The translations under genes and the position numbers were made by a program. A DNA stretch of 64,000 nucleotides from assembly GCF_011045215.1 (NCBI RefSeq), contig NZ_CP049201.1; one strand, written 5' to 3'. Each line of letters starts with the position of its first letter. The first letter of the stretch is position 1. This DNA is from Escherichia coli. Lineage in GTDB: Bacteria; Pseudomonadota; Gammaproteobacteria; Enterobacterales; Enterobacteriaceae. Below the pieces are notes generated by a model that ran no database searches, was not told where the DNA came from, and was given only the letters and a program-made list of their open reading frames with translations. This document shows positions 22,464 to 55,335 of the stretch, one piece after another.

Positions 22464-22891
22464 CAAACAATTCCTCTGAAAAGAGCCGATGCCCTGGACA
22501 GCGCGGCGTTGTTCACGGGAGGCGTGGTACACTCTGGCTATCGCGGGGCTTGCAGAACACAAAAATGAAACACTCTGTTTGTTTCATTAATTTTGTGAAC
22601 TATATCACAATTGATTGTTTGTTAGCCAGATTAGGTCGTGACTTTTATTGCTGTACAGATTATGTGGTTTTTCAGTGGCATTAAGGGTATATCTTCCCGC
22701 CGCCTCTGCATTCCTGTAGAAAATTAATTTTGAATATCAATGAATTATTTTCATCCAGGTGACGATTAGAAAGGTATCAATTTCAAATCAGGCAAAAGTG
22801 CTATTTATACCGTAAGATTTATCTAAAGACGTCGGTACCCAGGGTTTCACCTTGCAATGGCCGGGTATAAACAGGCAGGAAAATGATAGCA

Positions 22892-53566: not shown

Positions 53567-53818
53567 ATAAATCTCCATTTATCATTTATGTCGTAAATAT
53601 GTAATCCATGCAAAATACGTCATTTAAAGCTGGCGTTATCATAATTGGGAAATTGCGACTTTAATAAGTGGAAGTGTGAGCAGAACGATCCATTTTATTA
53701 GGCATTTGTGCTGAAGAGGGAAAAGTACGCGAATTTATTATCCCTGTAAATAATATGAGGTGTTTTATATATTTATTATATATATTGTACTTCGGCAAAT
53801 ACTGAGCACAATTAATCA

Positions 53819-54136
53819 ATGCAACCGGTGTTTTTTATTAAAAAACGTACCGGAGCAATGGGCGGTCATGTCGCTGGCACCGCAGGATTCTGTGTTGCTG
53901 TGCCAGCCTTTTATTCATGGTCAATGAGTGAGGGGATTGATAAAGAAACCAGGTCGTCAGAGCGCACTGATTATCCGCATTACGCCAGTGAAGTTGCACT
54001 GGCTTTTGGTTCACGAGTGGTTGGCCTCGAACTGGCAAAAATGATTGTGGATGCGTGGCTGGGCGCACAGTACGAAGGCGGTCGTCATCAACAACGCGTG
54101 GAGGCGATTACGGCAATAGAGCAGCGGAGAAATTGA
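53819..54136 (+). pseudogene. rpiB-like remnant (ribose-5-phosphate isomerase B family) lacking the catalytic core
   Basis: 105-aa ORF with weak translation signals; retains ...SSERTDYPHYAS... and C-terminal ...AFGSRVVGLELAKMIVDAWLGAQYEGGRHQQRVEAITAIEQRRN (RHxxR motif) but has no GxLICGTGxG active-site loop; sits immediately upstream of yjdP where K-12 has rpiB. Confidence 0.5.
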
Positions 54137-54204
54137 GATTCATCCACTACTTGCATGGATGAGTAATGACTAATGTGGATAGAGTTTCTTTTTGAGGTTG
54201 GCTA

Positions 54205-54534
54205 ATGAAACGCTTTCCGCTATTTCTTTTATTCACCCTGCTCACGCTGTCCACCGTTCCGGCCCAGGCCGATATTATCGACGACACCATTGGCAATATT
54301 CAGCAGGCGATTAACGACGCTTATAACCCTGACCGTGGGCGAGACTATGAAGATTCGCGCGACGACGGCTGGCAGCGTGAAGTGAGCGACGATCGGCGCA
54401 GACAATATGACGACCGCCGCCGCCAGTTTGAAGATCGTCGCAGGCAACTGGACGATCGCCAGCGCCAGCTTGATCAGGAGCGTCGGCAGCTGGAGGATGA
54501 AGAGCGGAGAATGGAAGATGAGTATGGGCGATGA
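54205..54534 (+). CDS. yjdP: small secreted low-complexity protein
   Basis: 109-aa ORF with signal peptide (cleavage after AQA) and Arg/Asp/Gln/Glu-rich periodic DDRRRQ-like repeats. Confidence 0.85.
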   Translation: MKRFPLFLLFTLLTLSTVPAQADIIDDTIGNIQQAINDAYNPDRGRDYEDSRDDGWQREVSDDRRRQYDDRRRQFEDRRRQLDDRQRQLDQERRQLEDEERRMEDEYGR

Positions 54535-54576
54535 GGTAGGCTCGGGTGAGGGGGCCAGCGCGCACATTCCCTCTCA

Positions 54577-55335
54577 TCACGCCACCCCAATCTCCATCCC
54601 ATCAAACCCCGCCTCAAACCCCGACGGCAGCGCGTTCTCCATCAGCCATGCATCAAACTGGTGGCTGATGTGCGTCAGAATCACGCGTGGCGAGCGGATA
54701 ACCTCATTCAGCGCCAGTACGGTGTTTAAATCACAGTGGTTACGTGGCGCATCTTCGCGCGGCGGGTGGCTGCAATCAATCACCATAACCTGCGGCTGAT
54801 TATTGCGTAAAAATTTCAGCGTTTTTTCCGGCAGGCCTGCGGTGTCAGACAGCCACGCCGCGCGGCTGTGCGCCGTTTCCAGCAGATAACCGAAGGTCAG
54901 TTTTGAGTGGTTGAGCGGCAGGGGCGTGACCTGTAACCCCTGCAAATCAAACACCACAAACGGTTCCACCGTGTGGCTGAAATCAAGCAGGCCCGGATGT
55001 TTAAACAGATCGTCGCAGCCCTGTTCATCCGGCGGGCCGTAGACCGGGATCGGATCGCCCACGCCCCAGCGCAGCGGAAACAGCCCCTGGACGTGATCCA
55101 TATGGTAGTGCGTCAGCAAAAACTGCTGGAACGATCCTGGCGACCAGCGATCGGCGAGATCGTGCCGCCCGGCGTCGATCAGGGTGATCGCCTCGTTAAA
55201 CTTCACTACGCCGCTGCATGGCTGGCGGCGATACTGCGGTGAGCGCCGCGCTCTGGCGCAGGCCGCGCACTCGCAGCCCCATGCCGGAACGCCCTGTGCG
55301 CCGCCGGTGCCGGTGAGCGTGAGGGACAGGCTCAT
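54577..55335 (-). CDS. phnP: phosphoribosyl 1,2-cyclic phosphate phosphodiesterase (metallo-beta-lactamase fold)
   Basis: 252-aa ORF with HxHxDH motif (THYHMDH); last gene of the phn operon. Confidence 0.93.

Follow-up and report, generated by a model that had tools for sequence, protein, structure and literature searches.

Within a 64,000-nucleotide (nt) stretch of Escherichia coli DNA (contig NZ_CP049201.1 of RefSeq assembly GCF_011045215.1), referred to here as the window and numbered from its first letter, the forward strand carries the gene yjdP, an open reading frame (ORF) of 109 codons plus stop at positions 54205-54534, read from the sequence and from the list of ORFs. A Shine-Dalgarno motif, GAGG (54194-54197, forward strand), precedes the ATG by 7 nt, and its GAG core is kept in orthologous yjdP leaders. 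Further upstream lies a conserved box that resembles binding sites of the regulator RcsB (54134-54147), and on the 3' side the convergent gene phnP follows. The encoded protein comprises a putative signal peptide, a short amphipathic segment, an acidic linker and six charged heptads, and the picture to which we lean, with some hesitation, is that of an Rcs-induced, Sec-exported periplasmic protein whose larger part is a helical rod.

Both the gene and its repeat family had been annotated, named and catalogued previously. The protein is 100% identical to YjdP of strain K-12 (b4487), from which the gene differs by four synonymous and no non-synonymous nucleotides; it scores 147.9 bits (cutoff 90) against the NCBIfam model NF041443, "DDRRRQL repeat protein YjdP", over residues 1-103 of 109, and the Pfam family PF28054, "YjdP", is a precomputed assignment on all close homologues. 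The name that an earlier note on this DNA had given to the gene is therefore correct. A local Pfam-A scan at E <= 1 returned only sub-threshold and unrelated families (DUF7900, Arm-DNA-bind_5 and DUF4140), and an NCBIfam match to FlbB, weak at 17.5 bits where the cutoff is 110, was dismissed as compositional. The names "RNase H-like nuclease" and "Skp family chaperone", attached automatically to some homologues, were likewise dropped, their sole support being a weak Skp-like match to the charged helix (E = 0.087). Searches of the literature for b4487 or DDRRRQL found nothing relevant.

Within E. coli yjdP is close to universal, being present in 5404 of 5426 complete genomes, and beyond it the family is almost entirely confined to the Enterobacteriaceae. 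When one genome per species was scanned, 88 loci emerged, and the 80 that were retained all come from that family; the genera include Escherichia, Citrobacter, Enterobacter, the Klebsiella oxytoca group, Raoultella, Kosakonia, Kluyvera, Leclercia, Buttiauxella and Cedecea, among others, while a few remote members come from soil metagenomes. The family is small, since HMMER, run exhaustively over 1.84 billion cluster representatives, yielded only 53 matches, 27 of them below 1e-10. That the reading frame is under purifying selection is evident from column entropy across 68 orthologues, which is 49.3 at the third codon position as against 25.7 and 16.3 at the first and second, and which in the N-terminal helix of the mature protein reaches 20.8 at the third position as against 5.2 and 3.0. 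We considered whether the repeat might be a purely DNA-level feature and the ORF spurious, as the opposite strand (54229-54567 and 54311-54580) and a further frame likewise hold long ORFs. Those ORFs are by-products of the CGN/GAY-rich repeat, and given a third-position variability two to seven times that of the other positions, the exclusively synonymous differences from K-12, and a signal peptide and protein architecture kept across 80 species, the chance that yjdP is spurious is negligible.

The first 22 residues (MKRFPLFLLFTLLTLSTVPAQA; 54205-54270, forward strand) have every feature of a Sec-type signal peptide, as the earlier note had proposed on calling it classical. An n-region with K2 and R3 is followed by a hydrophobic core at residues 4-18 (mean Kyte-Doolittle hydropathy +2.06) and by the cleavage site A-Q-A at residues 20-22, with D at position 23. 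This AxA-D site, which takes the form VxA-D in four sequences, is found in 79 of 79 distinct orthologues, and lies at residue 22 in 68 of them, contrary to what would have refuted the earlier note. As YjdP has no Cys there is no lipobox, and the n-region reads KR, not RR, so that a twin-arginine motif is lacking. Taken together, these features make it highly probable that YjdP is exported. In the literature that mentions yjdP, we found no proteomic or fusion data for its cleavage or its periplasmic location. The signal peptide is itself a site of length variation in some E. coli strains, where a 9-nt tandem repeat (TTCACGCTG, 5.6 copies) lies within its hydrophobic core (locus L083, positions 178-227, and locus L084) and encodes FTL repeats, giving alleles of 112 and 118 amino acids in about 5 of 60 evenly sampled genomes; the window holds only about 2.6 imperfect copies, at 54232-54255.

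Cleavage after residue 22 would release a mature protein of 87 residues with a net charge of -8, 67% of which are R, D, Q or E, rising to 82% over residues 61-109, and with a mean Kyte-Doolittle value of -2.28, which is extremely hydrophilic. Three modules can be told apart. Residues 23-41 (DIIDDTIGNIQQAINDAYN; 54271-54327, forward strand) are non-repetitive and form the best-conserved block of the family, and they are delimited by this conservation and by structure prediction as an amphipathic N-terminal helix, in which the hydrophobic residues I25, I29, I32, I36 and A39 recur at 3/4 spacing. The acidic linker that follows (residues 42-61; 54328-54387, forward strand), recognized from low model confidence and from the alignment, varies in both length and sequence among genera; in orthologues, net charge over the part of the protein that precedes the heptads averages -6.3. 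Residues 62-103 (54388-54513, forward strand), as delimited by periodicity, conservation and structure prediction, consist of six heptads: DDRRRQY, DDRRRQF, EDRRRQL, DDRQRQL, DQERRQL and EDEERRM.

The seven-residue period is strong, with an identity at lag 7 over residues 61-109 of 0.62 as against 0.18 in shuffled sequences (z = 8.0; 0 of 2000 shuffles) and further peaks at lags 14 and 21, and it is conserved: exactly six in-register hydrophobic residues, in the pattern YLLLLL or YFLLLM, are found in 77 of 79 distinct orthologues. In the heptad register, position a is occupied by R, R, R, Q, R and E in turn, b by R, c by Q, d by L, Y, F or M, e by D or E, f by D or Q, and g by R, R, R, E, D and D. 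The heptads are also conserved individually, such that heptad 4 has Q at position a and D at position e in 100% of sequences, and L89 and L96 are invariant. Net charge changes along the repeat, from +0.5 in the first heptad through +1, +1, 0 and 0 to -1.6 in the last, a conserved gradient which leaves the N-terminal end basic and the C-terminal end acidic. The earlier note had described the protein as made almost entirely of such repeats, mirrored by near-repeats of about 21 bp in the DNA at 54394-54520. The periodicity is indeed real and conserved across homologues, as that note required; it occupies residues 62-103 only, however, or about half of the mature protein. At the DNA level, Tandem Repeats Finder reports a 21-nt unit in 3.5 copies (54388-54460) and a 42-nt unit in 2.0 copies (54391-54473), and a repeat search finds three 42-nt copies at 21-nt spacing, which together define a tandem repeat beneath heptads 1-4 (54388-54473, forward strand). 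The nucleotide repeat is thus genuine and detectable only to about 54473, whereas the protein period runs on to M103 (nt 54513).

Heptad number is not wholly fixed within Escherichia. Most E. coli have the 109-residue form, and among 60 of 5405 matching records, sampled evenly, the matched span is 330 nt in 47 and 309 nt in one. An E. coli allele of 102 residues (P0039, L086) has one heptad fewer (-21 nt), and an E. albertii allele of 123 residues (P0038) has two more (+42 nt). This slippage is limited to heptads 1-3, which are the most alike in their DNA.

Structural modeling bears directly on whether the repeat is disordered or a coiled coil, the two possibilities raised by the earlier note. 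An AlphaFold2 monomer run with a 14-sequence alignment returned a continuous helix over residues 54-108 with a predicted local distance difference test score (pLDDT) of 88-97, preceded by a low-confidence linker at residues 41-53, within which the score falls below 50 at residues 46-49. Opposite-charge pairs at i+3 or i+4 number 36, compared with 21.1 +/- 3.3 in shuffled sequences (z = 4.5; 0 of 5000 reach 36), an excess characteristic of single helices stabilized by salt bridges. As modeled, then, the repeat region is predicted to be helical and not disordered, and only the linker looks disordered; the coiled-coil suggestion likewise fits in part only, as the hydrophobic position a of a canonical coiled coil is absent. 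We consider it probable that the heptad region is a helical rod. Several observations temper this conclusion. For the N-terminal helix the pLDDT is no higher than about 58-66; modeling two linked copies brought no gain in confidence (predicted template modeling score 0.45, helices at pLDDT 81-92 and N-terminal helices below 50); and as Asp does not favor helix formation, the rod on its own might adopt a helix in solution only in part.

If the mature protein were instead a disordered polyampholyte, it might serve as a protectant akin to hydrophilins or late embryogenesis abundant (LEA) proteins, or take up cations or cationic peptides like a sponge, becoming helical only on binding or dehydration. 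Its extreme hydrophilicity and net charge would suit such a role, as would a linker that is predicted to be disordered and varies in length, and the co-induction of yjdP with osmotic and desiccation genes. Against this stand the high pLDDT across the repeats and a position-by-position conservation of the heptads that is atypical of a purely compositional function. Further, hydrophilins combine high hydrophilicity with a Gly content above 6%, and YjdP, despite its hydrophilicity, has only 4 Gly in 87 residues (4.6%). We therefore regard global disorder as unlikely.

Granted a helix, the question is whether it acts alone or packs against another. In a homodimeric or higher-order coiled coil, the Leu seam would form the core and YjdP would be an oligomeric fiber or clamp. 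A canonical coiled coil has hydrophobic residues at both a and d; as position a of the repeat is polar, the heptads do not qualify as one, though the Leu seam does argue for a buried interface. Position a is always R, Q or E, leaving a single hydrophobic core residue per heptad at d; interhelical electrostatic scores are weak (+2.1 for parallel and +0.4 for antiparallel pairing) and do not decide the topology; and the dimer model, the linker of which favors an antiparallel hairpin, was no more confident than the monomer. Oligomerization through the heptads is accordingly a tentative possibility, which we would place below even chances. The converse arrangement, in which the heptads form a monomeric single alpha-helix (SAH) of the ER/K-like type and act as a rigid, fixed-length spacer of about 8 nm, would account for the excess of opposite-charge pairs, the want of a hydrophobic position a, the one straight and confident helix in the monomer model, and the retention of six heptads across genera. 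A single alpha-helix has no need of a Leu seam, however, and yet the seam is conserved in YjdP, with L89 and L96 invariant. Further, the acidic residue is mostly Asp and not Glu, the charge gradient opposes the helix dipole, and alleles with five and eight heptads occur naturally. A solitary helix of this kind thus appears rather doubtful to us.

In charge pattern the predicted rod is like SAH domains, and in period it is like coiled coils, but it conforms fully to neither. With SAH/ER-K domains and trichohyalin-like rods it shares dense opposite charges at i/i+3 and i/i+4, a very high charge, and no hydrophobic a; it differs in being bacterial, short and, as predicted from its sequence, periplasmic, in using Asp, Arg and Gln instead of Glu and Lys, and in having a Leu every seven residues. 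The best match in the PDB, which is weak (E = 0.0067), is to streptococcal M protein (M6; PDB 9mmx), where polar heptads also carry one Leu per seven residues. This match is compositional and periodic and implies no homology, M protein being a long Gram-positive surface fibril. In its general character YjdP resembles small periplasmic helical proteins induced through Rcs, Cpx or Bae, and likewise the LTXXQ proteins CpxP, Spy and ZraP, which are small, exported, helical, non-enzymatic and induced by envelope stress, the export and helicity of YjdP being predicted. It differs from the LTXXQ proteins in architecture and is unrelated to them in sequence: no LTXXQ or CpxP-like Pfam family matched YjdP at E <= 1.

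The regulatory context of yjdP is suggested by the box TGAGATTCATCCAC (54134-54147, forward strand), which resembles the RcsB homodimer box TN(G/A)GAN4TC(T/C)NA, as defined structurally and by electrophoretic mobility shift assay (PMC7913699). Of the eight bases that this consensus specifies, the window sequence shares all but the last, where it has C and not A, and 7 of 8 likewise agree in each of the 81 loci. It forms part of an 18-nt block, aTTTGAGATTCCTCCGCTAC (core TGAGATTCCTCCGC), which is found 71-75 nt 5' of the ATG in 81 of 81 loci, in otherwise unconserved flanking DNA. The box varies among loci within the consensus, with A or G at position 3, C or T at position 12 and a free N4 spacer, and T1, G4, A5, T10 and C11 are invariant. 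The 18-mer TTGAGATTCNTCCNCTAC occurs only once in the window, where 0.02 matches would be expected by chance. A single match to so loose a consensus means little, exact matches in the window numbering 2 against 2.0 expected, and the argument for RcsB rests instead on positional conservation and on variation that is compatible with the consensus. The two exact matches, at 8389-8402 and 22813-22826 on the forward strand, are a chance-level number.

Promoter geometry points in the same direction. An ungapped alignment anchored on the box places a -10-like hexamer, TAATGT (54171-54176, forward strand; family consensus TAnnnT), at a fixed distance of 23 nt from it, with transcription predicted to start at about 54182-54183. 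In rprA, the RcsB box spans -49 to -36 and the -10 hexamer TACTAT spans -12 to -7, and the distance between them is 23 nt, equal to that in yjdP. Because a generic sigma-70 scan found no promoter upstream of yjdP, the -10 assignment is one that we only infer. The likeness to RcsB-activated promoters (rprA, osmB, bdm, osmC, ivy and mliC) lies in a pseudo-palindromic box directly 5' of the -35 region; the difference is that the candidate box of yjdP ends in C, not A. Published expression data give independent support: an inhibitor of LolCDE raised yjdP RNA 9.5- and 10.6-fold in RNA sequencing, and the list of induced genes is headed by the Rcs targets osmB, bdm, wca/wz, rcsA, ivy, mliC and yjbEFGH (PMC5105897), such that yjdP is induced alongside osmB, bdm, ivy and mliC. 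The conserved promoter site suggests yjdP as a candidate member of the Rcs cell-envelope stress response, and we judge direct control by RcsB to be fairly likely. The taxonomic range of the Rcs system fits the restriction of the YjdP family to the Enterobacteriaceae.

Some of the evidence weighs against this attribution. Box position 14 is never A in any species, in departure from the published consensus; exact consensus matches in the window are no more frequent than chance predicts; the sigma-70 scan was negative; and yjdP is not listed in the transcriptome supplementary tables that we examined. The LolCDE-inhibitor list, in which spy also appears, holds RpoS and Cpx genes as well (PMC5105897), and these induction data are unable to separate Rcs from RpoS or Cpx. 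The box might then be bound by another factor or be part of a sigma-S promoter, with induction running through RpoS or Cpx; for the regulator CsiR, a chromatin immunoprecipitation peak and 3.5-fold repression of yjdP upon CsiR induction have been reported (PMC5217608). Such an explanation would have to accommodate a pattern of invariant and variable bases that matches the RcsB consensus exactly over positions 1-12, and a spacing from box to -10 identical to that of rprA, and we consider it improbable. To our knowledge, the box fits the consensus of none of CpxR, BaeR, PhoP, OmpR, EvgA, NarL or sigma-E.

Between promoter and start codon, most leaders outside Escherichia (L004 and others) could form an 8-bp hairpin (AAAGCCAG...CTGGCTTT) spanning -28 to -2 from the ATG (alignment A3, columns 13-44), which ends just 5' of the AUG and places the Shine-Dalgarno motif in its loop or 3' arm. 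When specified by hand, this hairpin has 77% of cells paired, as against 19-45% in slid controls, with modest covariation (28 of 500 shuffles). RNAalifold called neither this hairpin nor any other consensus structure on the yjdP leader, and the window sequence does not form the hairpin.

Under the reading that we favor, damage to the envelope would give rise to phosphorylated RcsB (RcsB~P), which would bind the box abutting the -35 region and activate transcription of yjdP; the Sec pathway would then export the precursor, with cleavage following AQA. Once mature, the acidic protein would consist of an amphipathic helix joined through a flexible acidic tether to the rod, an alpha-helix of some 55 residues and about 8 nm, stabilized by dense i/i+3 and i/i+4 salt bridges between Asp or Glu and Arg and marked by a single Leu seam. 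As YjdP has neither a catalytic motif nor Cys, binding is its most likely mode of action, whether as self-association or as contact with a partner in the envelope, and the N-terminal helix together with the Leu seam would mediate it. A bolder extension holds that YjdP is a periplasmic SAH rod which the Rcs system employs as a physical device, whether as a spacer of about 8 nm, as a decoy that draws off lysozyme or cationic antimicrobial peptides electrostatically, or in feedback on Rcs. The Lpp trimer is of comparable length to such a rod. We rate this extension as very unlikely; if true, it would amount to a structural principle for which the bacterial periplasm offers no described precedent. 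What is new here is the testable hypothesis of a conserved RcsB-type promoter, periplasmic export and a fixed six-heptad, salt-bridged helix. If this hypothesis were confirmed, the Rcs envelope-stress regulon would gain a further effector, and YjdP would provide a small model protein for the behavior of highly charged helices in the periplasm.

The surroundings of yjdP indicate that it is a stand-alone gene, because its upstream neighbor changes while box and gene stay together: among genera and within E. coli, that neighbor may be rpiB, yjcS, the hybrid kinase of O157 island OI-167, or others. Downstream, phnP faces yjdP in convergent orientation, an arrangement shared with K-12 and about 70 of the 80 species loci, with phnO, phnN and phnM further on. 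A functional link to the phn operon was set aside in view of this convergent orientation, of several species that have yjdP without phn, and of the conserved promoter that yjdP possesses in its own right.

In the window, yjdP is preceded by a 105-residue ORF (53819-54136, forward strand; context 53579-54204), identified by comparison with K-12 as a remnant of rpiB, and then by yjcS. The TGA stop codon of this remnant (54134-54136), which is also that of the intact rpiB in K-12, provides the first three bases of the box, so that the yjdP promoter and the end of its upstream neighbor coincide in part. Although K-12 has the identical protein and the same convergent phnP neighbor, its locus differs from the present one, in which the als operon is missing, rpiB is reduced to a remnant and no REP-type element separates yjdP from phnP. 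Relative to K-12, a block of about 6.6 kb from alsK to alsR and the 5' end of rpiB are gone; codons ~28-54 of rpiB (53929-54008, 89% identity) and its 3' end (53999-54136) are left, with an internal deletion of about 150 nt. The yjcS-rpiB'-yjdP arrangement is found in 1569 of 5409 complete E. coli genomes, and the remnant is carried in RefSeq relatives as an "RpiB/LacA/LacB family sugar-phosphate isomerase". In O157, island OI-167 occupies the position of the rpiB remnant.

On the 3' side, a terminator scan found none after yjdP. There is no obvious terminator between yjdP and phnP, since the residual hairpin does not exceed shuffled sequence in stability (z = -0.79) and is without a U tract. 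The stop codons of the two genes are separated here by 42 nt (54535-54576), whereas K-12 and many other strains carry a REP-type insertion of about 104 nt at this point, which has been catalogued as a G-quadruplex/hairpin element (PMC5100583).
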